Shown: positions 48,870 through 59,937 of the stretch, one piece after another
How the letters are laid out: the number at the start of each line of letters is the position of its first letter
Numbering within the stretch: the first letter of the stretch is position 1
From: an uncultured Gammaproteobacteria bacterium
GTDB taxonomy: Bacteria; Patescibacteriota; Microgenomatia; UBA10105; UBA927
NCBI GenBank assembly: GCA_964573695.1
Contig: CAZNKB010000007.1
Span: forward strand, 1 to 61,989
Length of the DNA stretch: 61,989 bases
Direction of reading: 5' to 3'
The notes under the pieces: model-generated
Databases searched by the model: none
The model's input: only the letters and a program-made list of their open reading frames with translations
What the model was told of the DNA's origin: nothing
Position numbers and translations under genes: made by a program

Positions 48870-50360
48870 TTAGTGAAATCTTCGACCTCCCAGTGAGCTG
48901 CGAGTTGTCATGATTGCAGTGTATGCATCCAGCGGTGACCGATCGTCGGTTAATATTTGCGTGCCCGACGGCAAACCAGTACGATTTCGCAACAGTGACT
49001 TCGTTAGGGGTGTTAGCGAATTACGCTCGAAATTTAATTGTTGTTTTGCGGCCACCACAATCAAGTTTTGGATCTGATACGTATCTGAAACTCCTGCAGT
49101 GGCAAATATTTCCACCTCATCAAACACTGCTAGACTCGTTGTTGTTATCGCTCGCGTCAATAAAGATTGCGGCCCTTCCAAAGCGCCAACAATATTTATA
49201 ATGACCATCCCGTCGTCTACCAACGACTCTCTTACTTTGATAAGTGCCTCCCGCGTCACCAGATACCACGGAAGAGTGTAACCCGAAAATACGTCAAATA
49301 ATACCGCATCGTACTTTACCTTATTGGTATGGAGAAATGTTCGGCCGTCTTCAAATATCATTTTGAGCCTATTTGAAGGAACAAATCCCATCGTTTTTTG
49401 TGCTATATCGTAAACCTGCTCATCGATCTCGACTACCGTCAAATAAATATTTGGATGGCTAGCGAGAACATGTCGTGGATACCCCATGCCTGCCCCGCCG
49501 ATCATCAAAACGTTACTCGGTAACGTATTCCAAAACATAAGGTTATAATAGGGATAGTAATTCAATAGCATAGCTTTCGGATCATCAATAGCTATCGCTG
49601 AGCTGTACGCTCCATCAATGTACATACCTCTCACCTTTCCGATGTGCGTTTGCACCTCATATATTTGAACGCGCCCGTATGCGGTATCCACGTCAATAAT
49701 AGTCTGTTTGCTGTTTGTTCCTGAAAGCACCCACCCCTGCAGCAATGCAGTAGAGCAAATGACAATACAAAACACTTTTGCCAATAACAAATACCTACTC
49801 AGGGCTACGCTTACCAGCAACAACACTAATACCACTACATAAAGTGTCTTAAGATGCCCTAAATAAGGCACCAATAAAAATCCAGTTAAAAACGTTCCCG
49901 CAATACTCCCCATCGTCGATAACGAATATATCTTTCCCACTATCTTGCCCGAATGAGTCACGCTGGAAATTGCGAGCCGAACTGCGTACGGCGATACTGC
50001 GCCTAACAAAAACGACGGCACACCGAAAAAAATTGATGCTGCCAATATTGATTGGATGTATCGATCAACAACCAGCTTTAAAACAAAATCCATTACTATT
50101 TCTTTAGTGAGGGCTACAAAAAAAACCCACATCGCTGATCCCATAATCAGTACCGATAATTTTTTGTAGCTGGCGTTTTTTTCCGATATCAAGCCTCCCC
50201 AGTAATACCCTAAAGATAAGAAGCCGAGTACAACCCCAATGAGGGACGTCCACACATACAGTGATGAACCAATATACGGGGCAACAATCCTCGTGCCAAT
50301 CAACTCCAACACCATGACGCAAAGACCGGTAAAAAAAGTACTTATGGATAAAATCACCAT
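48870..50360 (-). CDS. fused membrane domain / spermidine-synthase-like aminopropyltransferase-fold protein
   Basis: About 7 N-terminal TM helices, then VLMIGGAGMGYPRH...VVEIDEQV...YDAVLFDVFSG, which is the spermidine synthase/MTase fold. Confidence 0.7.
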   Translation of the reverse strand: MVILSISTFFTGLCVMVLELIGTRIVAPYIGSSLYVWTSLIGVVLGFLSLGYYWGGLISEKNASYKKLSVLIMGSAMWVFFVALTKEIVMDFVLKLVVDRYIQSILAASIFFGVPSFLLGAVSPYAVRLAISSVTHSGKIVGKIYSLSTMGSIAGTFLTGFLLVPYLGHLKTLYVVVLVLLLVSVALSRYLLLAKVFCIVICSTALLQGWVLSGTNSKQTIIDVDTAYGRVQIYEVQTHIGKVRGMYIDGAYSSAIAIDDPKAMLLNYYPYYNLMFWNTLPSNVLMIGGAGMGYPRHVLASHPNIYLTVVEIDEQVYDIAQKTMGFVPSNRLKMIFEDGRTFLHTNKVKYDAVLFDVFSGYTLPWYLVTREALIKVRESLVDDGMVIINIVGALEGPQSLLTRAITTTSLAVFDEVEIFATAGVSDTYQIQNLIVVAAKQQLNFERNSLTPLTKSLLRNRTGLPSGTQILTDDRSPLDAYTAIMTTRSSLGGRRFH

Positions 50361-50453
50361 ACGTTTCGAAACGACGAAGCCGTACCGCGCTGTCTATGGT
50401 ACCCTTGCCATAGATATCACGACTCCTACATATTGTTTACGTATAATTTTCTG

Positions 50454-50588
50454 AGCGGAGGAGACAGGACTTCCCGCAGAGACGGGATTGTCGCTCGCCA
50501 CCGCTCGCGCCTTACTTCTCGTCCTATCTTTCGTTGAAAAAGTGCTCGCCAAACGGCGATCACCTTTTTCAGCGGAGGAGACAGGACT
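50454..50588. repeat. 18-nt direct repeat of the tRNA-Ser(GGA) 3' end
   Basis: AGCGGAGGAGACAGGACT occurs at 50454-50471 and again at 50571-50588. The second copy is the 3' acceptor/T-arm of the intact tRNA. Confidence 0.9.
50456..50524 (-). pseudogene. degenerate tRNA-Ser-like element (no anticodon arm, shortened T-loop)
   Basis: The minus-strand sequence GGACGAG...GCGAGCGGT...CAATCCCGTCTCTGCGGGAAGTCCTGTCTCCTCCG shows the following. The acceptor pairs at 6/7 positions. There is a D-loop-like AGCGGT. The variable-arm and 3' end are homologous to the neighbouring tRNA-Ser(GGA). The T-loop is 3 nt short. Confidence 0.55.
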
Positions 50589-50655
50589 CGAACCTGCGAG
50601 GGATTGCTCCCGTACGCTTTCCAAGCGTATGCCGTAGCCGCTGGGCCACTCCTCC
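50573..50655 (-). tRNA. tRNA-Ser (anticodon GGA)
   Basis: Hand-folded. Acceptor GGAGGAG/CTCCTCC, anticodon stem TACGC/GCGTA with loop TTGGAAA, long variable arm, T-arm CAGG-TTCGAGT-CCTG, discriminator G. Confidence 0.85.
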
Positions 50656-50708
50656 AAAGGCTTTGATTATATCATCTTTTGCGTCTTCCCCGGTGCTATA
50701 ATACCTAT

Positions 50709-51629
50709 ATGACGGTGCGTCACAAAGCGCTTTTTGCAATACTTATTTCTGCGATCCTCTGGGCAAGTGCCGGCTCAGTTTCCAAACTGCTGTTTATGGA
50801 AACTACTCCTTTTGTCGCGGCAAGCCATAGGTTTTTACTTGCCTCACTTATAATTCTCCCCTTTTTTCTTCGGGCCAAAAAGCCAAAGGGATATATTCTT
50901 TCACTCCTACCTCTTGGCGTATTTAACGCCGGTAATATTCTGTTTTACTACACCGGTCTCTCGCTAACGACAGCAAACACGGGGAGTATCTTGGGGACTG
51001 CTATTCCCATTACCGTCGCGCTTTTTTCCCCGTTTTTCATAAAAGAACCTATCGCGAAAAACAAACTACTGGGTATTCTTATCGGGCTTGCGGGTGCTCT
51101 ATGCATTGTTTTACTTCCGATGATCGAAAACGGCCACCTGAACTCAGGGAGTCTGTTGGGAAACCTCCTCATGGTCGGCAGCCTTCTCTGTTGGACTATG
51201 TATATTATTTTTTCTCGACGTATCCTCTCTCAAGTCGATTATCCCCCCGAACTTTCAACGTCTATCAATATTTTTACCGTCACCATTGCTGCTACATTTG
51301 CGGCATTTGTCTCCGGGCAAACCCTTATATCACCCGCGCTTCTTGTCCCTGCCTATTTGGGGGTACTGCTTTACGTTGCAATAGGAATTACGATCGTCAC
51401 GTTTTTTCTTTTCCAATGGGGAGTCCGACACGTATCCGCTTCTACCGCATCACTTAAAGAATATATCCAACTTGTCGTAGGGGTCGGCATAAATGCGTTA
51501 GTCCTCGGTGAGCGCCTCACGTTCACCTACCTTTTGGGATCTATACTCATTATAGTGGGAGTACTGTTTGCGACGGGAAACCGCTTGACCAAAAAAATGG
51601 CTTCGGCGTTATTTACCCAAGGGGAATAG
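50709..51629 (+). CDS. DMT-superfamily (EamA/RhaT-like) transporter
   Basis: The start is at ATG 50709. 306 aa, 10 TM, two EamA repeats. Confidence 0.8.
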   Translation: MTVRHKALFAILISAILWASAGSVSKLLFMETTPFVAASHRFLLASLIILPFFLRAKKPKGYILSLLPLGVFNAGNILFYYTGLSLTTANTGSILGTAIPITVALFSPFFIKEPIAKNKLLGILIGLAGALCIVLLPMIENGHLNSGSLLGNLLMVGSLLCWTMYIIFSRRILSQVDYPPELSTSINIFTVTIAATFAAFVSGQTLISPALLVPAYLGVLLYVAIGITIVTFFLFQWGVRHVSASTASLKEYIQLVVGVGINALVLGERLTFTYLLGSILIIVGVLFATGNRLTKKMASALFTQGE

Positions 51630-51631
51630 CG

Positions 51632-52228
51632 TCATTTCGCAAACTCTTCGTGGATCGCTTCCCGGATGTCTTTCCACCAATCCTGAGAGTCGGTTGCGGC
51701 CAGTGCGGTCATAAGCTCGACGGATTCGGGAAGCCTGACGCGAAGTGAATTTGCATCCATCCATTCTTTGGCATGCGTGTTTCCCCGCTCCATAAGAATT
51801 TTGCATTCCACGCCGAATGCAATCACGTTCGCTTCGTACACTACCTGCGCCTCGAGCGTTTTTTTCGCTTCGTATTCGTTAAGCTGGGCCAATAATTCAT
51901 CATCGATGCCTGCAAATATATCTATATTTGCCTTGTCTTCGTGTCTGGTCATGTAGAGTTTCGCCACTTTATCCATTTCCCCGGTTCTTCCTTCGTGAAA
52001 ATCATGGAATATGCTCATGATGAGAATTTTTTCCATGGAGACTCCCCGATCCTTGTTATGTTGCGCGTTTATTTGTTTGGCCAGAAGATAGGCGATAACG
52101 GCGGTCATGAATGAATGTTCACCGACTCCTTCTTCATTATCTCCTAACCGTTGCCAGCCGGTACGGAGCATCCGCTTTACATTTGCGGCTTCATAGATAA
52201 GATTTGTCAGACGTTTCGGATCTTTCAT
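51632..52228 (-). CDS. HD-domain phosphohydrolase (YfbR-like 5'-deoxynucleotidase family)
   Basis: GEHSFMTAVIAYLLA (the first His) and IFHDFHEGRTGEMD (the HD motif). 198 aa. The start is 13 nt downstream of the tRNA-Arg(CCG) 3' end. Confidence 0.75.
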   Translation of the reverse strand: MKDPKRLTNLIYEAANVKRMLRTGWQRLGDNEEGVGEHSFMTAVIAYLLAKQINAQHNKDRGVSMEKILIMSIFHDFHEGRTGEMDKVAKLYMTRHEDKANIDIFAGIDDELLAQLNEYEAKKTLEAQVVYEANVIAFGVECKILMERGNTHAKEWMDANSLRVRLPESVELMTALAATDSQDWWKDIREAIHEEFAK

Positions 52229-52241
52229 AGATATGTATAAG

Positions 52242-52313
52242 TACTCCCGGGCAGAGTCGAACTGCCATCACAGCCTTCGGAGGGCCGCATTCTATCCATT
52301 GAACTACGAGAGC
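52242..52313 (-). tRNA. tRNA-Arg (anticodon CCG)
   Basis: Hand-folded, 72 nt. Acceptor GCTCTCG/CGGGAGT (two G-U pairs), D-arm GTTC-AATGGATA-GAAT, anticodon loop CTCCGAA, T-arm GGCAG-TTCGACT-CTGCC. Confidence 0.8.
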
Positions 52314-52370
52314 CTGGCACGCCGTATTATACCGCCGTTTCAGACTCTCTGCTAGAATGGGGTCAATACT

Positions 52371-54455
52371 ATGCGCCGATTAGTGCTATTTTTTGGCATC
52401 TTACTTGCTCTCTATCTCGGGGTGGTTGTTTATTGCAACCGGGCGCTTCTTTTTTCACGATTCGATGAGTCTTACTGGAAAGATAAATATGAGCAGTCGC
52501 AGTGGAAATTGCCACTTTCGCCTCGTACTATCGGTGATGATGGCCTATACCTCTATGAGGGATATCGGCTAATCCGTGGAGGAGACCCTACCAGTTCCAA
52601 TGCCGAAATGCCCCCGCTTGGGAAATACCTCATAGGAGCCAGTATCTTCGTGTTCGGAAACGGATATATTTACGGATTCATAACAACCTTTAGCCTCATT
52701 GTGGGGACATTTATCCTAACTCGGCTGCTCATCAAGCAGACCGTACCCGCACTTATTGTTGCCCTGCTGCTTGCGACGGATCCCTTAGTTACCAACCAAT
52801 TTGCACTGACCATGATGGACTCGCTGCAAGCCTCGCTCCTTATTCTGTTTCTTGTAGTACTCTTTCACGTTACCGCTTCCAAACAAAAACACAGCGTATT
52901 ATTGGCTACATTCTCCGGAATCATCTTGGGTTTATTTTCAGAAACCAAACTTCCGGTTCTGACCCCGTTCATCGGACTTATCGGGATATATTACCTGTGG
53001 GCAAAAACAAGATCCCTGCAGCTTCTCGGGGCGTTTATCTCCGGAGGGATCATCGGATATGTCACCCCGTATATCGTCTTTTTTGTCCAGGGGCACACAC
53101 TGCTTGACTGGCTCAAAATCCAAAAGTGGATCGTCACATTTTATCGCCACAGCAATTTGACCCCCACCTGGGGGAGTGTCGTCACCACGCTATTATTCGG
53201 CTCCTACCAAAACATTTTTTCACGCCTATGGGAACGAGCCAACGAGTGGAGCCCTGCCTGGGCAGTGCTATTCTTTTCCTCCTTTGGCGCGTTAGGCCTC
53301 TCAATCCGCCGAAAAAGTCTGAGTGCCCAATGGATCGTTATGTTTATTCTGATATTTATCACCCTCGGGTTATATGCCGTCTTACCATTCTGGACACGAT
53401 ACCTTGTCACGGTACTTCCGCTTCTTTACGTAACGAGCGGCCTCGTGTTATCGCGCTTACCCAAAAACCTCTTACTTCTCATAAGCGGGACTGTCCTTAT
53501 CGTAAACGTCGCCTCGTCAGTTCCGATCCTGTTTTCCTCTCCGCAGGCTACCGCAAACCAAGTCATCTATGCTATCGAGCATCAGCAATTTACCGACCTT
53601 TACGAAGATACGACCGCGTCATTTCGGCGTAGTACAAATCGGGATGCGTTTCGGCGTTTTGGGCTCATTACATTCGCAGCAGGCGAAATAGAACACATCA
53701 ACATCCTTCCGACCGGGCCGAAACTCACCGGGCACGCCTCACCGCAGTATCTTAACGTCCAAATCACGTACTATACACGCCGTTTAGGATCATTTACCCA
53801 AAAAAGTTCCATTCCGTTTGTCCGTGAGGACGGGCGCTGGCGTATCCCCTGGCAATGGTCGCTGCTTATTTCAGGACTCACCGAATCCGGGCGTCTGGAG
53901 ACCAACGTCATAGAGGCGCGACGGGGAACACTGCTTGCGAGCGACAAAAAACCACTCGCTGAGGACGTGCCGGGACACCTCGTATGGGTCACTCCACAGC
54001 GCATAGACAAAACACAGGAAGAATCGTTGCTTACGCTTCTTGAAACCGTCTTTGACGGGAAACAGCCCAAAGTCGCCCTTCACCAACGGATCGTTGGCAA
54101 TAGCCTTGCGGATCAGGCGATACCGTTGGGAGTCATCCCGCATCCGAAAACCGATCCGAACGTTATAGCGCTCGCATCGTTTTCCGGAGTTACTCTCACT
54201 CACGCGTTTACGAGACTGACCTATCCCAATCACGTTGTTGACATAGGTGAGACCGCCAATACCGCGTATTCGGAATGCTGTACCGTACTTTACTCAACGA
54301 CGAACTATGACGGTGTTACCGGCGTCGAAAAAGCAAAAAACGCGCTACTCAAAGGCGTACACGGAGGCACACTTACGCTGACAAACTCGGAGGGCAAAAT
54401 ACTACAGACTCTCATCGAAAAAACGAAACGCGACGGACAAAATGTGGAACCCTAG
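52371..54455 (+). CDS. fusion of a GT-C-like polytopic membrane domain with PBP N-terminal (NTF2-like plus dimerisation) modules; no transpeptidase domain
   Basis: 694 aa. Residues about 1-390 have more than 10 TM helices and are ArnT/PMT_2-like. The C-terminal about 300 aa carry ARRGTLLASDKKPLA and GVTGVEKAKNALLKGVHGGTLTLTNSEGKIL, resembling the class B PBP dimerisation domain. The ORF ends before any SxxK/SxN/KTG motifs. Confidence 0.5.
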   Translation: MRRLVLFFGILLALYLGVVVYCNRALLFSRFDESYWKDKYEQSQWKLPLSPRTIGDDGLYLYEGYRLIRGGDPTSSNAEMPPLGKYLIGASIFVFGNGYIYGFITTFSLIVGTFILTRLLIKQTVPALIVALLLATDPLVTNQFALTMMDSLQASLLILFLVVLFHVTASKQKHSVLLATFSGIILGLFSETKLPVLTPFIGLIGIYYLWAKTRSLQLLGAFISGGIIGYVTPYIVFFVQGHTLLDWLKIQKWIVTFYRHSNLTPTWGSVVTTLLFGSYQNIFSRLWERANEWSPAWAVLFFSSFGALGLSIRRKSLSAQWIVMFILIFITLGLYAVLPFWTRYLVTVLPLLYVTSGLVLSRLPKNLLLLISGTVLIVNVASSVPILFSSPQATANQVIYAIEHQQFTDLYEDTTASFRRSTNRDAFRRFGLITFAAGEIEHINILPTGPKLTGHASPQYLNVQITYYTRRLGSFTQKSSIPFVREDGRWRIPWQWSLLISGLTESGRLETNVIEARRGTLLASDKKPLAEDVPGHLVWVTPQRIDKTQEESLLTLLETVFDGKQPKVALHQRIVGNSLADQAIPLGVIPHPKTDPNVIALASFSGVTLTHAFTRLTYPNHVVDIGETANTAYSECCTVLYSTTNYDGVTGVEKAKNALLKGVHGGTLTLTNSEGKILQTLIEKTKRDGQNVEP

Positions 54456-54871
54456 AGAATGGGAATTTTGGATAAATCTCCGTCAATAACCGTCGGCTGT
54501 ATAGCGTGCATCTCCGTTTTGTAGTCCATTTCGGGAACAGGGTATAGTAAATACACTTTTTTTCCTAACCCGAAGGCATACCCCATTTCCAAAAAGGTAT
54601 TGCCTCCGATATACCCGGGGACCCCTTTCTTCTCGTAATTGAGGATGAGGATCGCATCTGCCTGCTCAATCTTGCGAAAATGCTCACGGATAAAGTCGTA
54701 TTCTATTTTGACGGTGATACGCTCTTCATCGGTGTCCATATACGACTCGTTTTTGTGTATATCATCCAGCTCTCCCGGAACAAATACCTTACACCCGCGG
54801 GCCAGCAACTGGTCACGCACCGAGGCCATTTCCTTATGAAACTGCATGGACCCACAAATGGTGATTGTCAT
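54452..54871 (-). CDS. nucleoside 2-deoxyribosyltransferase-like (NDT/DNPH1-fold) protein, paralog 1
   Basis: The start was set at MTITICGSMQF (54871). It has an Rossmann-like ICGS N-terminus and ADAILILN...GYIGGNTFLEMGYAFGLGKKVYLL. The longer track ORF runs through a tRNA gene. Confidence 0.6.
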   Translation of the reverse strand: MTITICGSMQFHKEMASVRDQLLARGCKVFVPGELDDIHKNESYMDTDEERITVKIEYDFIREHFRKIEQADAILILNYEKKGVPGYIGGNTFLEMGYAFGLGKKVYLLYPVPEMDYKTEMHAIQPTVIDGDLSKIPIL

Positions 54872-54891
54872 AGTATATTCTGCTGTCAGAG

Positions 54892-54977
54892 CGGAGGGTA
54901 CAGGATTCGAACCTGTGCCACCTTTACAGGTGAACGGTTTTCGAGACCGTCGCTTTGAACCGCTCAGCCAACCCTCC
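54892..54977 (-). tRNA. tRNA-Ser (anticodon CGA)
   Basis: Hand-folded, 86 nt. Acceptor GGAGGGT/ACCCTCC, D-stem GCT/AGC, anticodon stem ACGGT/ACCGT with loop CTCGAAA, long variable arm, T-arm ACAGG-TTCGAAT-CCTGT, discriminator G. Confidence 0.85.
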
Positions 54978-54981
54978 GCAC

Positions 54982-55060
54982 TGACAAGGTTTTTCCCGCA
55001 GAGCGGGATCCCGCTTCGCGGTGACGAGACCTGGCCGTTTAGCCGCTCCGGCACCTTTCC
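54982..55060 (-). pseudogene. degenerate tRNA-Ser-like element 4 nt upstream of tRNA-Ser(CGA)
   Basis: The 5' 36 nt (GGAAAGGTGCCGGAGCGGCTAAACGGCCAGGTCTCG) is about 70% identical to the 5' half of tRNA-Ser(CGA). The acceptor GGAAAGG/CCTTGTC pairs at 6/7 positions. The anticodon and T arms are replaced by GC-rich palindromes (GCGGGATCCCGC, CCCGC-TCT-GCGGG). Confidence 0.45.
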
Positions 55061-55105
55061 TTCGATCTCACAATTATACTGCAAATGACTCGTAAGAACG
55101 AAAAA

Positions 55106-55519
55106 TCACAATCGGGAGAGATCTCCGGAAAGCACTACAGGGCGCATTGCAGCAAGTTCTAATTCATAATCCATGACGGGAATCGGGTTAAGGAGATAAA
55201 TTTTTTTCCTGAGGTAAAACGCAACCCCCATTTCCAAAAAAGTATTGCCACCTATATAACCTGCGATACCGTGATGAGTGGGGTTGACCACGAGAATTGC
55301 GTCAGACTGCTCTATTTTTTGGAAATGTTCGCGGATAAAATCGTATTTGGCCTCAGCCGCTAGCCGCTCGGGGACGGTCTTGGGTTTTTTGAACCCGTCT
55401 CGCTCAATAAGCGTCAGGCTTTTCGGAACAAATACCGCGTGTCCCAACGTTACCAGTAAGTGTTCAGCATCGCGCATTTCCCGATGAAACGTGAGACTTC
55501 CGCAGATAGCTATCGTCAT
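55106..55519 (-). CDS. nucleoside 2-deoxyribosyltransferase-like (NDT/DNPH1-fold) protein, paralog 2
   Basis: The start is at MTIAICGSLTF (55519), 5 nt after the tRNA-Arg(GCG) 3' end. It is about 50% identical by eye to paralog 1 (YDFIREHF.KIEQ.DAIL..N....G..GYIGGNTFLEMG.AF.L.KK.YLL.P.P.MDY). Confidence 0.6.
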   Translation of the reverse strand: MTIAICGSLTFHREMRDAEHLLVTLGHAVFVPKSLTLIERDGFKKPKTVPERLAAEAKYDFIREHFQKIEQSDAILVVNPTHHGIAGYIGGNTFLEMGVAFYLRKKIYLLNPIPVMDYELELAAMRPVVLSGDLSRL

Positions 55520-55524
55520 ACGAG

Positions 55525-55596
55525 TACGCCCAACAGGAGTCGAACCTGTATCAGAAGCTCCGCAAGCTCCTATTCTATCCATTGAACTATGGGCGC
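55525..55596 (-). tRNA. tRNA-Arg (anticodon GCG)
   Basis: Hand-folded, 72 nt. Acceptor GCGCCCA/TGGGCGT, D-arm GTTC-AATGGATA-GAAT, anticodon stem GGAGC/GCTTC with loop TTGCGGA, T-arm ACAGG-TTCGACT-CCTGT. Confidence 0.8.
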
Positions 55597-55635
55597 AAAA
55601 CTAACCGTATTGTACACCAAATCGCCCTGTTTGAG

Positions 55636-56151
55636 CTAGGCTTGAGGCTTTTCTAACGGGATTTTTTCGGAAATCCAACGCGCGGCGTTGTCTACCCAGC
55701 TTCTGTCGGGTTCTTCGCGAAAGGGGATATGCCGGGCCACCAGCTCCCGCACTTTATCTTTTTTTTGATCCCCCAAAAGGACAATTATTCTCGGAGATAT
55801 AAACGGGCGGAGCACCACCATGTTTTGTCCCCATTGCTCGTCAAACCAAAAATCCGCAAACTCTTCCCAACGGTAAAAATGTCCCGCGCTCTCAATCCCC
55901 AAACTGGTAACACGGTGCTTCACATCCTCCGGAGGAACGGTCGAAAGCACATAAATCAAAAATACGATCGAGAGTACGGTCGCAATCAGCACAAATTCCC
56001 GCACAAACACCAAGATCACAGATAGCAAAAATACGATAGCGAGAATGTTGACGAAAAATTCACGGTCACGCTTTTTAAACAGTCGTGACGGAGATACCCA
56101 CGCCAGATACACTTCTTCTTCCTTCGGCTCCTGACGGGGATGTGAGGGCAT
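55636..56151 (-). CDS. hypothetical 2-TM membrane protein
   Basis: 171 aa. It has two adjacent TM helices (FFVNILAIVFLLSVILVFV / FVLIATVLSIVFLIYVL) followed by a soluble C-domain. It starts 9 nt after the NUDIX stop. Confidence 0.55.
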   Translation of the reverse strand: MPSHPRQEPKEEEVYLAWVSPSRLFKKRDREFFVNILAIVFLLSVILVFVREFVLIATVLSIVFLIYVLSTVPPEDVKHRVTSLGIESAGHFYRWEEFADFWFDEQWGQNMVVLRPFISPRIIVLLGDQKKDKVRELVARHIPFREEPDRSWVDNAARWISEKIPLEKPQA

Positions 56152-56160
56152 ATATTCTTT

Positions 56161-56610
56161 TTATACCATATTCACGTCCGTCTTTGTAAGAAATGTACGA
56201 TAGACACCGATATCGCTTGTCGTTATGACCGAAAGCGGCGTCGGCAACGCGTCAAGACCGAACCAGCCGGTTGCTTCGCACTTATCGGGCTCCATAATCT
56301 TCGGCTCCTGACCCTCTACTATAGAAGCGATAAAGCAGGTGGGAACCCAATGCTGTTTTTCCGCTTCTAGCAAATGGTCCTGGGCCGGAAACTGGTAAGA
56401 AAGGACGATGTCGACTCCATATTCTTCCTTCATCTCCCGTAAGATAGCCTCTTTGAGCGTTTCGCCGAACTCTACTTTGCCGCCCGGTATTTCCCACGTC
56501 CCTCGCTCGTTTGTGGCACGCTGCCCTCGCTTCGTCAAAAAAATCTCTCCCTTGGCATTCAAAATAAGGGCTCCGACCGAAACACCGATGTAATCAATGC
56601 CTGACTTCAT
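56161..56610 (-). CDS. NUDIX hydrolase
   Basis: The start was set at MKSGIDYIG (56610), 8 nt after the tRNA 3' end. The Nudix box is GGKVEFGETLKEAILREMKEEYGV. Confidence 0.8.
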   Translation of the reverse strand: MKSGIDYIGVSVGALILNAKGEIFLTKRGQRATNERGTWEIPGGKVEFGETLKEAILREMKEEYGVDIVLSYQFPAQDHLLEAEKQHWVPTCFIASIVEGQEPKIMEPDKCEATGWFGLDALPTPLSVITTSDIGVYRTFLTKTDVNMV

Positions 56611-56618
56611 GATACGGG

Positions 56619-56704
56619 CGGAGAGGGTGGGATTTGAACCCACGGTATCTTTTGGATACGGAAGTTTAGTAAACTTCTGCACTAGGCCACTATGCGACCT
56701 CTCC
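56619..56704 (-). tRNA. type-II (long variable arm) tRNA, Ser-like, with predicted anticodon ACU
   Basis: Hand-folded, 86 nt. Acceptor GGAGAGG/CCTCTCC, D-stem GCA/TGC, anticodon stem GAAGT/ACTTC with 7-nt loop TTACTAA (anticodon ACT), 17-nt variable arm, T-arm GTGGG-TTCAAAT-CCCAC, discriminator G. Confidence 0.65.
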
Positions 56705-56712
56705 TGTGCCTG

Positions 56713-56795
56713 CGGAGGGGACAGGACTCGAACCTGCAAGCCCTAACGGGCGCCAGTTTTCAAGACTGGTTCCTTACCATTCGGAGCACCCCTCC
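56713..56795 (-). tRNA. tRNA-Ser (anticodon UGA)
   Basis: Hand-folded, 83 nt. Acceptor GGAGGGG/CCCCTCC, anticodon stem CCAGT/ACTGG with loop CTTGAAA, long variable arm, T-arm CAGG-TTCGAGT-CCTG, discriminator G. Confidence 0.85.
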
Positions 56796-56811
56796 AGATG
56801 TGTGCATTATA

Positions 56812-57453
56812 TCATCTGCTAAGGGACATCCCGATCTTTCGTGCAAATGCTTCATAGAGGCCAATAAGCTTGAGCTGCAGACGGTAATCTTGATATCTCA
56901 CCGTGCATGTCCCGTAATATTGTGCACGATGTTTCTTTCCGTTCAGACTTGTTATTGTGGGTTTTATAAATAGTCCACCTTGAATTGACAACCTATCTAC
57001 CCAGTATTGTTTGAGTTTTTCATAATTCTGATTTGCATGTATTTGCAGGTGTACACGAAGCTTCGTGTTGTCGAGACTAAACCCTTTTCTCAGAAGCTCC
57101 AAAAAAGTTCTGATCAAGTCGGGATCGCTATTTGTAAGCGCCAACCTATTTGAAGCCGGATATTTCGCCCCTTCACACCAATAAATAATTGCAGCAAATA
57201 GTTTTGCCTGCTCAATAGACATCCTGACCATGTCGTCGGTTCCTAATGTCTCGGACTCCTTCAGCTCTTCCCGTTTTCTCGCATGAAAAGAGCGTAGAAT
57301 ATCGCCTTTTGTAAATACCGTATCACCATAACACCAATTTCTAATCGTAGATGAAGGAATGCCGTATAGGCGTGAAAGATGACTGAATGAATACCTATGC
57401 TTTTTTCGTTGCGTCTTGATCTGTGCTATCTCAGAATCTAAATACCTTTTCAT
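56812..57453 (-). CDS. HTH plus LAGLIDADG-like (LAGLIDADG_3-type) homing-endonuclease-family protein
   Basis: 213 aa from MKRYLDSE. The N-terminal HTH is YSFSHLSRLYGIPSSTIRNWCYG. FAAIIYWCEGAKY sits in the position of a LAGLIDADG helix with an acidic residue. NSDPDLIRTFLELL, YW and YGTCTVRY follow the LAGLIDADG_3 layout. Confidence 0.5.
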   Translation of the reverse strand: MKRYLDSEIAQIKTQRKKHRYSFSHLSRLYGIPSSTIRNWCYGDTVFTKGDILRSFHARKREELKESETLGTDDMVRMSIEQAKLFAAIIYWCEGAKYPASNRLALTNSDPDLIRTFLELLRKGFSLDNTKLRVHLQIHANQNYEKLKQYWVDRLSIQGGLFIKPTITSLNGKKHRAQYYGTCTVRYQDYRLQLKLIGLYEAFARKIGMSLSR

Positions 57454-57455
57454 GG

Positions 57456-57540
57456 CGGAGAGTGTGGGAGTCGAACCCACTCACCGCTATTCACGGTGCA
57501 GGTTTAGCAAACCTGTGCCTTACCGTCCGGCCCACCCTCC
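57456..57540 (-). tRNA. tRNA-Ser (anticodon GCU)
   Basis: Hand-folded, 85 nt. Acceptor GGAGGGT/ACTCTCC (one G-U), D-stem GCC/GGC, anticodon stem CAGGT/ACCTG with loop TTGCTAA, long variable arm, T-arm GTGGG-TTCGACT-CCCAC, discriminator G. A genomically encoded CCA follows at 57455-57453. Confidence 0.85.
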
Positions 57541-57573
57541 ATATATCAATTATAGTCTCAAAAACCCTTCATA

Positions 57574-58248
57574 TCAACCAATCTGACGCGGCGAATCGCA
57601 ACTCTGTATAACCAGCACGGATCCCTGATGAACCGTAATATGTGCTGATTTTCCGGAAATCTCGTTGCTGATTCCCAGAGAAGAACCGCTATATAGCGTC
57701 TTATGCATCAACTCATATACAAATCCTTTAAGCGTAACCGTTGCCTTTTTGGCAATGGGAATGACCGATACATACCTATATCTGCTGTCATATGACAGCA
57801 ATTGTTGATGACGCACAATGTTTATTTTGCTAAAGTTATCCACAATTACTCCATAAATATTGTGCGACTCTAGCCTCAATAGCATGTGCACAGCTCCCAG
57901 TGTATGGTCAAACCTTCTTCCCAGCACTCCGAAAAGCACAACCTCCTGAGGTTTTTGCGATATCGCATGATCTATCGCAAGTTCCAGGTCAGTCGCGTCT
58001 TTTTCCGGCGCGTATTCTATATACAAAGCTGAACCGTCATGAATGCGTTTCTTCTCCACCCTAGTGACGGAATCAAAATCTCCGATTGCTACATCCGGCG
58101 TTACCCCGTGTCGCAGGAGCCACAAAGCCCCACGGTCAACGCCGATAACGGTGTGAGCTTTTTTGATTTGCGGTAATATGGAGCTATCCAACGCTCCGCC
58201 TGCTACTATTGCTATAACTTTATACTGTCCTAATGCTCTATTTTTCAT
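57574..58248 (-). CDS. thiN: thiamine pyrophosphokinase
   Basis: IAIVAGG, IGVDRGA, IGDFDS, EKDATDLELA and LGRRFDH are the TPK catalytic-domain motifs. A C-terminal thiamine-binding beta domain is present. Confidence 0.8.
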   Translation of the reverse strand: MKNRALGQYKVIAIVAGGALDSSILPQIKKAHTVIGVDRGALWLLRHGVTPDVAIGDFDSVTRVEKKRIHDGSALYIEYAPEKDATDLELAIDHAISQKPQEVVLFGVLGRRFDHTLGAVHMLLRLESHNIYGVIVDNFSKINIVRHQQLLSYDSRYRYVSVIPIAKKATVTLKGFVYELMHKTLYSGSSLGISNEISGKSAHITVHQGSVLVIQSCDSPRQIG

Positions 58249-58291
58249 GACATACAGCTATTCTATACTATTTTCCTCTTATGTTGCTTCC

Positions 58292-58996
58292 TTATCGGGC
58301 CATGGTAACGGCCCAAACGCAGGTCGCCCCATGCCGCTTCAGTGTGTTTGCCGCCGATCGCATGGTTGCACCGGTCGTAAACACATCGTCAAACAATAAC
58401 ACAGTTACTCCCCGCACCGGAACCTTCGGGTCCACAGAAAAAACCGCTTCCATATTTTTTAACCGGTCTTCCCTCCTTTCCATGTCTACCTGAGCCGTGG
58501 TTTTCTTCGTGCGGCGCAGCATATCCGTTCTCATGCGCATATGCAATCCTGCCTGCGCAGACAGGCGTCCGGAAATGAAACCTCCCAACACTTCCGCCTG
58601 ATTGAAACCGCGCTCCCGAAAACGCGACAGGTGGAGCGGGATGGGCACGAGTACCCCGTCATTTCCGATATGTCCGACTGCCGTATTGAGCGACGAAACG
58701 GGAATGAGCGAGACAAACGCAGCTCCCAGATCGGAAACGAAGCGGTATTTGAGTGCTTTCACTCCTTTTCGGATCACTCCTTCGTAGCGGAAAAAAGAAG
58801 TAAGACCGTCTGGGCTATAGCGCGTCCGACACCGGGGATGTGTGGCACCGTCTATCGCGGGATGTTCGCAAACCGGACATATCGACTCATTAAGCGCAAT
58901 ACGGTGAATGTTCTGCCGGCAGGATGCACAGAAATACTCACCTATAGTGCCGCACCCCAGGCACCGTTTGGGAAACAATATATCCAAAACGGACAC
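58292..58996 (-). CDS. comF: ComF-family protein (ComFC; zinc finger plus phosphoribosyltransferase domain)
   Basis: The N-terminus is FPKRCLGCG...FCASC. The C-terminal PRT motif is VLLFDDVFTTGATM. Confidence 0.85.
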   Translation of the reverse strand: MSVLDILFPKRCLGCGTIGEYFCASCRQNIHRIALNESICPVCEHPAIDGATHPRCRTRYSPDGLTSFFRYEGVIRKGVKALKYRFVSDLGAAFVSLIPVSSLNTAVGHIGNDGVLVPIPLHLSRFRERGFNQAEVLGGFISGRLSAQAGLHMRMRTDMLRRTKKTTAQVDMERREDRLKNMEAVFSVDPKVPVRGVTVLLFDDVFTTGATMRSAANTLKRHGATCVWAVTMAR

Positions 58997-59077
58997 AATA
59001 AAGCCTCCTCATACCATTGTACAAGGAGGCAACATTGCTTGCCCGAACCCCGCCTTTTTAGGGGCGGGACGCGAATG

Positions 59078-59494
59078 GGTGGAGATGCCGGGCGTTGAGC
59101 CCGGGTCCGAAGGAACACGTCGAAAACTTCTACAAGCGTAGTCCATTTCATTCTCTGCAAAAGACAAAACGGACAAATACTTTTACAGAGGGTTGATCGA
59201 AAAAATACTCCGGCGGCTACCGATCATTAGCCGCCTGACGGCCTGGCTTTGTTTACACCCTATAAGTCCTCACCAGACAAAAGAACAAATAAGATGGATC
59301 TTAGTTGGCGTACGCGTAAGCGTAAGCTGACTGTGATCGCTTGATCATAAGTCGTTCTACAAGGTAGGCGTACTTTTCCTCAAGCTCGCTAAGTGTATTA
59401 GCAATTATGAATTGACAAGAATTTTTACGGCTCTTTTGTCATCGCCGGCTTGCAGTTTATCAATGTGCCCGCATCGTCGATCTGATGCATCCCC
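59078..59494 (-). ncRNA. ssrA: tmRNA (ssrA)
   Basis: The 5' GGGGATG pairs with the 3' CATCTCC, including the G3:U70 Ala identity pair. The 3' end GGACCCGGGCTCAACGCCCGGCATCTCCACC parallels the E. coli tmRNA T-arm/acceptor. An internal ORF opens with GCU-AAU about 93 nt from the 5' end. It lies immediately downstream of smpB. Confidence 0.8.
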
Positions 59495-59937
59495 TATGTT
59501 ACTTTCCCCCGAAAATCTCGTTCTAGCTCTCGTTTTTCTTGTTCCCGACGCTTTTTCTCACGTTTTTCGTACTGTTTCTTGCCTCGCGCAAGCCCGACTT
59601 CGAGCTTAATAAAGGGGCCTTTAGTATACCAGCTCAGGGGGACGAGGGTCAAATTAGCGCCGTCTATCTTGCTTTTTAGGCTCACCAGTTCTTTTTTGTG
59701 AAGCAGGAGCTTACGCGTACGCTTGGGATCAACGCCTTCCGGACGCGCATAAACGTACGGAAATATCTGGGCGTTTATCAAATAGGCATCCGAGCCCAAA
59801 ATACGCACGAAAGCTCCGTCCAGCTTGGCATGTCCGTCACGTAGTGATTTGACCTCCGCACCGGTAAGGGTAATCCCCGCCTCAAATCGGTCAAGAATTT
59901 CATAATCAAAAGTCGCTTTTTTGTTTGTTATTTTCAT
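59494..59937 (-). CDS. smpB: SsrA-binding protein
   Basis: 147 aa with the motifs NKKA.FDYEI...EAGI.L.G.EVKS, F.P.....NAQI.PY and RKLLLHK.E. Confidence 0.95.
   Translation of the reverse strand: MKITNKKATFDYEILDRFEAGITLTGAEVKSLRDGHAKLDGAFVRILGSDAYLINAQIFPYVYARPEGVDPKRTRKLLLHKKELVSLKSKIDGANLTLVPLSWYTKGPFIKLEVGLARGKKQYEKREKKRREQEKRELERDFRGKVT

Follow-up and report, generated by a model that had tools for sequence, protein, structure and literature searches.

How is a protein gene expressed when its start codon follows a transfer RNA (tRNA) gene within a few nucleotides (nt), with neither a promoter nor a Shine-Dalgarno (SD) sequence in between? The question is raised by contig CAZNKB010000007.1, a stretch of 61,989 nt (the window) from a Gottesmanbacteria-like member of the Patescibacteria, found in groundwater and possessing a tiny, roughly 1-Mb genome. 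On its minus strand, serine and arginine tRNA genes abut small open reading frames (ORFs), and a preliminary description of the locus had proposed that a single polycistronic precursor is cut at its tRNAs, as in mitochondria. In this study, we examine the tRNAs, start codons, promoters and tRNA 3' ends of the array in the window and in related genomes. The reading that we favor, at a probability of roughly 0.55, is that the array consists of short promoter-tRNA-ORF units whose co-transcripts would be cut by RNase P and a 3' endonuclease, and that the trailer would be translated as a leaderless or nearly leaderless messenger RNA (mRNA).

Transfer RNAs in the window were called with ARAGORN, with Rfam as the second method. 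Seven were found, all on the minus strand and each confirmed by Rfam at 46-62 bits, and five of them fall inside 54892-57540. They are listed below with the ORFs that accompany them, in the direction in which the minus strand is read; leader lengths are counted from the tRNA discriminator base.

57540-57456, minus strand: tRNA-Ser(GCU), with an encoded CCA to 57453 and the discriminator G at 57456 (ARAGORN; Rfam, 46.6 bits)
57453-56812, minus strand: ORF of 213 amino acids (aa), leader 2 nt after tRNA-Ser(GCU)
56795-56713, minus strand: tRNA-Ser(UGA) (ARAGORN; Rfam, 51 bits)
56704-56619, minus strand: tRNA-Ser(ACU), 8 nt past tRNA-Ser(UGA) (ARAGORN; Rfam, 52.7 bits)
56610-56161, minus strand: NUDIX ORF, leader 8 nt (CCCGUAUC) after tRNA-Ser(ACU)
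56151-55636, minus strand: two-transmembrane (2-TM) ORF of 171 aa, starting 9 nt past the NUDIX stop codon; the 2-TM label is that of the preliminary description
55596-55525, minus strand: tRNA-Arg(GCG) (ARAGORN; Rfam, 62.5 bits)
55519-55106, minus strand: NDT-like ORF 1 (NDT1), 137 aa, leader 5 nt (CUCGU) after tRNA-Arg(GCG)
54977-54892, minus strand: tRNA-Ser(CGA), of the GGAGGGT type as in related loci L010 and L013 (ARAGORN; Rfam, 61.8 bits)
54871-54452, minus strand: NDT-like ORF 2 (NDT2), 139 aa, leader 20 nt after tRNA-Ser(CGA), without an SD and without a conserved -10 box
52313-52242, minus strand: tRNA-Arg(CCG) (ARAGORN; Rfam)
52228-51632, minus strand: HD/YfbR-like 5'-deoxynucleotidase ORF, 198 aa, leader 13 nt after tRNA-Arg(CCG)
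50655-50573, minus strand: tRNA-Ser(GGA) (ARAGORN; Rfam), with no abutting ORF

The minus-strand tRNA array and its ends as first described were confirmed by both programs, and the spacers given for it (2, 16, 8, 8, 9, 39, 5, 45, 4 and 20 nt) were all reproduced from the sequence. The closest junction, that of tRNA-Ser(GCU) and the 213-aa ORF, reads ...CTCCG CC ATG; the encoded CCA occupies 57455-57453, and its last A is the A of ATG. The sequences GGAG, GAGG and AGGA are absent from the leaders of the four junctions first reported (213-aa ORF, NUDIX, NDT1 and NDT2). A fifth junction, in which tRNA-Arg(CCG) precedes the HD/YfbR-like ORF by 13 nt, lies outside the segment first delimited and had been missed there.

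The start codons on which these distances depend were checked against homologues, and the N-termini of the NDT-like, NUDIX and HD proteins are conserved. Most NDT-like homologues begin at the same M-T-I-T-I-C-G-S, with residues 2-8 (TITICGS) conserved and the conserved ICGS strand directly after M1. The 717 homologues of NDT2 are mostly 136-139 aa long with the same start, and those that are named belong to the Patescibacteria, chiefly to Gottesmanbacteria, Woesebacteria and Microgenomates groups. NUDIX and HD orthologues that are detached from any tRNA begin at the same N-terminal residues. Some database entries differ: the N-terminal extensions of P0003, P0044 and P0109 are the upstream tRNA gene translated in frame, and in NDT-like entries of 129-131 aa the start is set at an internal Met9. 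By these alignments, the proposed ATGs are the true starts, and gene callers err in both directions. Public NDT-like gene calls are in fact often wrong at the 5' end, being either tRNA-extended (172-189 aa) or Met9-truncated, and P0022 and P0026 are further cases.

It is scarcely credible that the junctions are an artefact of true starts lying downstream behind SDs, of pseudogenes or of chimeric assemblies. Many NDT-like database entries do start at Met9, but TITICGS is conserved and most homologues share the same ATG, the tRNAs score 46-62 bits, and the arrangement recurs in dozens of independent assemblies. A phage-derived tRNA island is given the same very low standing. Phages often carry tRNA arrays together with small ORFs, and NUDIX-type genes are common in them; against this, NDT1, NDT2 and the 2-TM ORF had no PHROG match, GC content is uniform across the window, and the array is flanked by housekeeping genes, namely SmpB, transfer-messenger RNA (tmRNA), a ComF-like gene, thiamin pyrophosphokinase and a PBP-like gene.

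Both the tRNA-ORF adjacency and the positions of the ATGs, whose conservation the preliminary description had left to a comparison of related genomes, proved to be conserved. A scan of a genome collection yielded 78 related loci (L001-L078) of about 20 kb each, mostly titled Gottesmanbacteria, and these together with the window hold the 314 tRNAs counted here; loci L079-L162 form an independent metagenome set. Related contigs occur in groundwater samples from Hainich (Hain-H41/H51) and in several from JGI. An ORF was taken as abutting if it had at least 90 aa, lay on the same strand and started no more than 30 nt downstream of the tRNA, and the mirror image, with the ORF in divergent orientation, served as the control. 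Such an ORF start follows 95 of the 314 tRNAs, as against 24 of 314 in the control, which confirms that the adjacency exceeds chance. Almost all of the 314 tRNAs come from the same seven serine and arginine species, and the block is therefore a conserved syntenic cluster; since only 10 of them are neither serine nor arginine tRNAs, other tRNA kinds are hardly sampled by these counts.

The individual junctions recur as well. In about 20 relatives NDT2 follows tRNA-Ser(CGA) at a distance of -1 to 28 nt, in 12 NDT1 follows tRNA-Arg(GCG) at 4-9 nt, and in nine the HD gene follows tRNA-Arg(CCG) at 3-29 nt; the junction of tRNA-Ser(ACU) and NUDIX is repeated in L002, and tRNA-Ser(GCU) adjoins the 213-aa ORF likewise in L008 and L012. 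Clustering of the tRNA-abutting ORFs gave at least 10 unrelated protein families. The commonest leaders in the relatives measure 3 nt (12 cases, such as G-CTT-ATG) and 2 nt (seven cases, G-CC-ATG), and none is shorter than 1 nt.

How, then, is the array transcribed? Promoter-like sites in and around it were located as follows.

57577-57549, minus strand: TTGATA (57577-57572), 17 nt, TATAAT (57554-57549), 8 nt before tRNA-Ser(GCU); the -35 element overlaps the thiamin pyrophosphokinase stop codon
56814-56806, minus strand: extended -10 element TGaTATAAT, 10 nt before tRNA-Ser(UGA), overlapping the stop codon of the 213-aa ORF
56168-56160, minus strand: candidate extended -10 element TGgTATAAA, in the last bases of the NUDIX gene and 8 nt ahead of the 2-TM start codon
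55614-55609, minus strand: TACAAT with TG directly upstream, 12 nt before tRNA-Arg(GCG)
55078-55073, minus strand: TATAAT, 12 nt before a tRNA remnant, kept upstream of the intact ancestral tRNA in L002, L003 and L007
52331-52326, minus strand: TATAAT, 12 nt before tRNA-Arg(CCG)
50674-50666, minus strand: TGaTATAAT, 10 nt before tRNA-Ser(GGA)

Thus, no tRNA or tRNA group in the window is without a -10 box, and the distance between the two is always 8-12 nt. The site before tRNA-Ser(GCU) is the best promoter match in 50000-59500, agreeing at 11 of 12 positions, and the TGaTATAAT element with the 5' end of tRNA-Ser(UGA) is repeated at tRNA-Ser(GGA) (repeat family D4). For the relatives, a -10 box was scored when it agreed with the consensus in 5 or more of 6 bases and ended 4-16 nt before the tRNA. 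It was scored at 150 of the 314 tRNAs, the distances peaking sharply at 9-10 nt, and at 18 of 314 random positions; tRNA-Arg(GCG) has one in 40 of 52 genes. The stop codons of the ORFs in the array are separated from the next tRNA by spacers of 16, 39 and 45 nt, each holding a promoter, so that the 3' sides of the ORFs are not tRNA-tight.

These promoters bear on the precursor first proposed, a single long RNA with its 5' end upstream of 57540, from which RNase P and a 3' nuclease would release tRNAs and mRNAs as in animal mitochondria. It draws support from the genes between 61767 and 54452, all of which are on the minus strand, and from loci L079 and L081, in which the 213-aa ORF has a tRNA at either end and its stop codon falls inside the second. 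No intrinsic terminator was detected inside the array, and read-through between units is therefore possible; behind tRNA-Ser(GGA), the sole tRNA of the window with no abutting ORF, there is a terminator-like hairpin with a T-run (50559-50546). A single precursor is nevertheless not required, and we consider it improbable, because each tRNA or tRNA group has a -10 box of its own, because these boxes are position-specific and conserved, and because promoters occupy the stop-to-tRNA spacers. Judged by its promoters, the array is a string of mini-units, each made up of a promoter, its tRNA or tRNAs and its ORF or ORFs.

The junctions themselves are a different matter. They contain no promoter-like or terminator-like site and are too short for a promoter, and the 213-aa ORF, NUDIX, NDT1 and NDT2 have no TATAAT-like hexamer ending 5-8 nt before the start. 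It could still be argued that each tRNA-adjacent ORF is served by its own promoter, placed in or just after the tRNA, and is expressed from a primary leaderless mRNA. This architecture is common in the lineage, occurs at some orthologous junctions of tRNA-Arg(CCG) and the HD gene with gaps of 18-22 nt, and plausibly applies to the 2-TM ORF. At gaps of 1-10 nt, however, the bases from -12 to -7 are acceptor and T-arm sequence (TCCGCC, GGGCGT, ACACTC) and are unlike TATAAT, and the leader of NDT2 offers only a 4 of 6 match, CAGAAT, at the wrong spacing and not conserved in orthologues. For the junctions as a class, we regard such promoters as very improbable. Promoters inside the tRNA 3' ends were considered in their own right and rejected, as the sequences do not fit.

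No promoter of its own can be assigned to the 213-aa ORF, NUDIX, NDT1 or NDT2 at the junctions. The 2-TM ORF is probably served by a separate promoter of the leaderless type; in its orthologues, TATACT stands 6-9 nt upstream of the start codon. Because there is no room for a separate promoter or SD, we infer that the abutting ORFs are transcribed together with the preceding tRNA.

Translation of such a transcript has to be seen against the signals that this lineage uses. For loci L001-L060, the comparison set 699 long ORFs (150 aa or more) against 3666 internal in-frame ATGs. GGAG, GAGG or AGGA at -18 to -5 counted as an SD core, and a hexamer that agreed with TATAAT in 5 or more of its 6 bases and ended 5-8 nt ahead of the ATG counted as a -10 box. 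An SD core precedes 10.2% of the ORF starts and 10.9% of the internal ATGs, and a strong SD 3.7% and 2.6%, respectively; consistently, a histogram of GGAGG distances has no peak upstream of the ATGs of long ORFs. The -10 box, in contrast, is present at 22.3% of ORF starts and at 1.2% of internal ATGs. Of the spacings between TATAAT and the ATG of a long ORF, one of exactly 6 nt was counted 159 times over a background of about 40, and one of 7 nt 74 times. In the window, only eight of 49 long ORFs have an SD core, and TATAAT, TACAAT or TATACT stands 6-9 nt ahead of many of their start codons.

The lineage thus appears to depend little on the SD and to have many primary leaderless genes, and its translation machinery should then accept 5'-proximal AUGs. 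It follows also that the missing SD after a tRNA is not special in itself. The contrast drawn in the preliminary description, between SD-free leaders at the junctions and very strong SDs at other genes of the window, does not survive this comparison, as SDs are not enriched at ORF starts of the lineage and few genes carry one. Start models based on the SD are unsuited to such a lineage, and gene callers mis-set the starts described here. Our literature searches found no account of leaderless gene usage or of CCA biology in the candidate phyla radiation.

Orthologues of the same gene differ in the signal that precedes them. By our own tally of leader sequences, an AGGAG-type SD is found in seven of nine NDT2 orthologues whose gap to the tRNA is 33-133 nt, as against three of 20 with a gap of 30 nt or less. 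Orthologues of the HD gene that are detached from a tRNA have TATAAT or TACAAT 6 nt before the ATG, and some of those with gaps of 18-22 nt have TATACT between tRNA-Arg(CCG) and the ATG, reading ...GCTATACTATCTCT-ATG in L004, L005, L007 and L008. These observations fit a gene whose start may be marked by an SD, by a promoter or by a tRNA, the mode of initiation switching with the spacing. Three initiation modes within one lineage would offer a natural comparative system for the exchange of such signals during genome reduction.

The 3' ends of the tRNAs provide the remaining element. CCA is not encoded in 240 of the 314 tRNAs, and an endonucleolytic 3' cut is therefore needed before CCA can be added. 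At a CCA-less tRNA, the mRNA produced by such a cut would carry a 5' monophosphate and reach its AUG within 0-20 nt. Among unique tRNAs, C stands at position 74 in 298 of 300 from the genome loci and in 135 of 141 from the metagenome set, whereas C75 is found in about 36% and A76 in about 43% of the tRNAs. Start codons begin at tRNA position 75, 76 or 77 and never overlap C74 or the discriminator. This pattern suggests a need for C74 in 3' processing or CCA completion, and a cut after C74, if that is where it falls, would give a perfect 5'-AUG mRNA at G-C-ATG junctions. By analogy only, Propionibacterium acnes, which is without tRNase Z, cleaves between the two Cs of CCA (PMC3848588). The preference for C74 alone points to an uncharacterised rule of tRNA 3' processing in Patescibacteria.

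Taken together, the favored mechanism would run as follows. Each unit would begin with a promoter of the -10 type, placed 8-12 nt before its tRNA or tRNA pair, and the small ORF behind the tRNA, with its ATG 1-20 nt past the discriminator and without a terminator, promoter or SD of its own, would share one transcript with the tRNA. RNase P would remove the 5' leader of a few nucleotides, and an endonuclease would cut the tRNA 3' end after N73 or the near-invariant C74. The same 3' cut would leave an mRNA with a 5'-monophosphate end at the AUG or a few nucleotides before it, and this processed mRNA would be translated by the leaderless or SD-independent route that a large share of the genes of the lineage already use.

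Several points weigh against this mechanism. Co-transcription, the cleavage site, the identity of the nuclease and the translation of the processed product are all read from the anatomy of the locus. The leaders of 8-20 nt at NUDIX, NDT2 and the HD gene are not strictly leaderless. AAGGAG is found within leaders of 16-20 nt in L004 and L006, and some junctions may use it as an SD. In the window, the HD gene has a degenerate TATAC(A) where its relatives have TATACT, which leaves room for a weak promoter of its own. Finally, most long ORFs lack an SD, presumably those internal to operons too, and ribosomes may initiate internally on unprocessed RNA.

The last point leads to the explanation that the junctions are a by-product of compaction: intergenic DNA has been squeezed out, which alone places tRNA and ORF on one transcript; the ORFs are initiated internally by an SD-independent route on long RNAs that are unprocessed or processed in another way; and cutting of the tRNA 3' end contributes nothing to their expression or even damages it. 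Same-strand neighbours in the window are routinely 1-40 nt apart or overlapping, some form of SD-independent initiation must exist given that most long ORFs have no SD, and leaders of 8-20 nt need no 5'-terminal AUG. On the other hand, a folded tRNA 1-5 nt before the AUG would, from what is known of ribosome footprints, take up space that the 30S subunit needs. ATGs sit at tRNA positions 75-77 and never closer, which looks like a constraint from the 3' processing site, and tRNAs lacking CCA must be cut there anyway, so that a processed mRNA will exist. We therefore hold compaction as the whole explanation to be unlikely, though it deserves real weight.

The 213-aa ORF stands out for the way its family is distributed in genomes. 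Its protein has an N-terminal helix-turn-helix (HTH) region and a conserved C-terminal alpha/beta domain with invariant YWCEG, SD, QxH and GTC motifs. The family is confined to Patescibacteria and always lies next to tRNA-Ser(GCU), on either side of it. It directly follows the tRNA in 24 loci, of which 19 have the junction G73-C74-ATG, and directly precedes it in 43, there often with its own TATAAT 6-7 nt before the ATG and with a reading frame that often enters tRNA-Ser(GCU). The downstream neighbour of the ORF is often tRNA-Ser(UGA) or tRNA-Ser(ACU), and the stop codon then lies 15-23 nt inside that tRNA. Frames running 14-55 nt into the next tRNA gene were seen in L079 (3622-3636), L081 (3632-3654) and several of L108-L161. 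RNase P cleavage at a tRNA that contains the stop codon would yield a non-stop mRNA. In close relatives without the ORF, tRNA-Ser(GCU) and tRNA-Ser(UGA) are 16-20 nt apart (L003, L004). Presence or absence at one fixed, conserved site suggests a selfish, homing-type gene, and its position would mean that an incoming gene can be expressed with only a tRNA in front of it.

The label "LAGLIDADG-like" first attached to this ORF is unproven. The LAGLIDADG Pfam profile matches neither the ORF nor any of 27 homologues, among which only N-terminal HTH families match. Searches of PHROGs, NCBIfam and PDB sequences gave nothing significant for the ORF, PHROGs offering only a weak N-terminal match of HTH type. 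An AlphaFold model with a predicted local distance difference test (pLDDT) score of 89.5 had no Foldseek match at E <=0.001 in PDB or BFVD. Weak hints do recur below threshold: several of the sub-threshold BFVD matches are annotated as LAGLIDADG or homing endonuclease, and a faint NCBIfam match falls on an 852-position RFC small-subunit model, in which an intein stretch is an assumption from the length of the model.

Taken further, the evidence allows a broader proposal, which we offer tentatively and at somewhat less than even odds: tRNA 3' maturation would be a step of gene expression in Gottesmanbacteria and related Patescibacteria. A nuclease would read the acceptor end together with C74, and the mRNA would start 0-3 nt before the AUG, with ATGs at positions 75-77. 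This would be the normal route for a set of small genes that includes housecleaning genes and the selfish, tRNA-Ser(GCU)-specific family, and the system would be a true bacterial counterpart of mitochondrial punctuation.

Such punctuation is said to have been set out by Ojala, Montoya and Attardi in 1981. As in mitochondria, tRNA genes here abut protein genes, with leaders of 2, 8, 5, 20 and 13 nt in the window and modes of 1-3 nt in the relatives, free of leader signals, and tRNA excision would be expected to set the 5' end of an mRNA with a minimal leader and no SD. The placement of an ORF stop codon inside the next tRNA is shared with mitochondria only in some relatives, such as L079 and L081. 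Unlike mitochondria, where there are one or two promoters per genome, the array has a promoter for each tRNA or tRNA pair; in the window only the 5' sides of the ORFs are tRNA-tight; and a subset of genes around seven serine and arginine tRNAs is involved rather than a whole genome.

Within bacteria, the thrU-tyrU-glyT-thrT-tufB operon of E. coli is a comparable arrangement: its tRNAs and protein gene share a promoter and are parted by RNA processing. The likeness lies in a common strand with no promoter or terminator between tRNA and ORF, co-transcription being presumed in our case. In E. coli, however, the ORF lies about 100 nt downstream with a normal leader and SD, while here the distance is 1-20 nt without an SD, so that the processing site and the translation start would coincide, as they do not at tufB.

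Transcript ends set by tRNA-processing enzymes are also a feature of t-elements, which occur in plant mitochondria too. These tRNA-like structures are cut by RNase P and tRNase Z, and their use in Haloferax has been described (PMC4946936). As with the t-elements of archaea and plant organelles, the enzymes of tRNA processing would here set the ends of a neighbouring non-tRNA transcript. The elements of the array differ in being bona fide, conserved tRNAs that bear anticodons, and the one degenerate element, at 55060-55025, lies upstream of a real tRNA and looks like debris rather than a processing signal.

Two kinds of leaderless mRNA are also comparable. MazF is reported, by Vesper et al. in 2011, to generate leaderless mRNAs in E. 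coli. As with MazF, an endonuclease cut just upstream of the AUG would make the leaderless mRNA; MazF cleavage is stress-induced and toxin-dependent, whereas the cut here would be constitutive and belong to essential tRNA 3' maturation. In Actinobacteria, leaderless genes whose start codon follows a -10 box at 6-7 nt have been described in Mycobacteria (PMC4633059), Streptomyces (PMC4681348) and Propionibacterium (PMC3848588). The Patescibacteria studied here share with them a lineage-wide leaderless signature, and their ribosomes presumably accept a 5'-terminal AUG as well. The tRNA-adjacent ORFs are unlike actinobacterial leaderless genes in having no -10 box, and their 5' ends would be monophosphates made by cleavage instead of triphosphates.

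Searches of the literature found no account of start codons abutting tRNA 3' ends, or of tRNA-defined leaderless mRNAs, in bacteria, and the literature consulted on leaderless genes and tRNA processing mentions tRNA punctuation for mitochondria only. Production of mRNAs by tRNA excision is otherwise textbook knowledge for mitochondria, and tRNA-like elements for archaea and plant organelles. If the processing mechanism is true, tRNA excision would be a new route to translatable leaderless mRNAs in bacteria of the free-living type.

Degenerate tRNAs in the cluster give some indication of its history. The tRNA-like remnant named in the preliminary description was recovered by alignment: 55060-55025 on the minus strand corresponds to a tRNA-Ser(CGA) of the GGAAAGG type, of which only the 5' half is left. 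The break falls in the anticodon, and a 47-nt filler (55024-54978) comes next. Neither ARAGORN nor Rfam called a tRNA at 54978-55060. The ancestral tRNA-Ser(CGA) is intact at the same place in L002 and L003, and L001 has the same remnant with an extra insertion. The remnant keeps the ancestral promoter. By this alignment it is debris of tRNA replacement and would be removed with the 5' leader. A second remnant, at about 50470-50451 on the minus strand, is a copy of the last 18 nt of tRNA-Ser(GGA) and lies 117 nt downstream of that gene. The filler beside the first (...GGGATCCCGCTCTGCGGGAA...) resembles the sequence beside the second (...CAATCCCGTCTCTGCGGGAA...), and the two fragments with their similar filler point to repeated tRNA replacement or recombination in the cluster. 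By eye, the sequence directly upstream of the NUDIX start in L001 and L012 resembles a decayed tRNA 3' end.

The products of the array had been described as enzymes of nucleotide sanitation or salvage throughout. This theme stands for the NDT-like pair and NUDIX and extends to the HD 5'-deoxynucleotidase-like gene, but unrelated genes, such as that for the 2-TM protein, also occupy the slot. The NUDIX ORF matches Pfam NUDIX at 70 bits. Pfam support for the NDT-like pair is marginal, as NDT2 scores 28.9 bits against PF05014 and NDT1 18.0 bits, below the cut-off of 28.8, and a search of PDB sequences with the NDT-like profile gave zero matches; the two proteins are 54% identical, and their homologues are named "nucleoside 2-deoxyribosyltransferase" in the source databases. 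For the 2-TM ORF, profile searches found no family, and related loci hold 52 orthologue matches.

In relatives, the slot after a tRNA also holds MazG-like and SurE-like ORFs (L021, L024, L026, L028, L041, L044) as well as unrelated EamA, IMPase-like, CutA-like and GNAT-like genes, all with N-termini read by eye. Small nucleotide-housecleaning or salvage enzymes are thus often found directly after a tRNA, and we found no reason for their link with serine and arginine tRNAs.

Two further features of the window may be recorded. The tmRNA gene (59494-59077, minus strand, Rfam) adjoins smpB (59937-59494) with no spacer, another RNA gene packed against a protein gene, and a strong hairpin (59030-59003) follows it just before the ComF-like gene. 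Two of the anticodons are odd. Bacteria normally have tRNA-Arg with the anticodon ACG rather than GCG, and the array has the G34 tRNA-Arg(GCG) together with an A34 tRNA-Ser(ACU) beside tRNA-Ser(GCU). Both recur in relatives, tRNA-Ser(ACU) in 13 related genome loci and eight metagenome loci and tRNA-Arg(GCG) in 52 loci.

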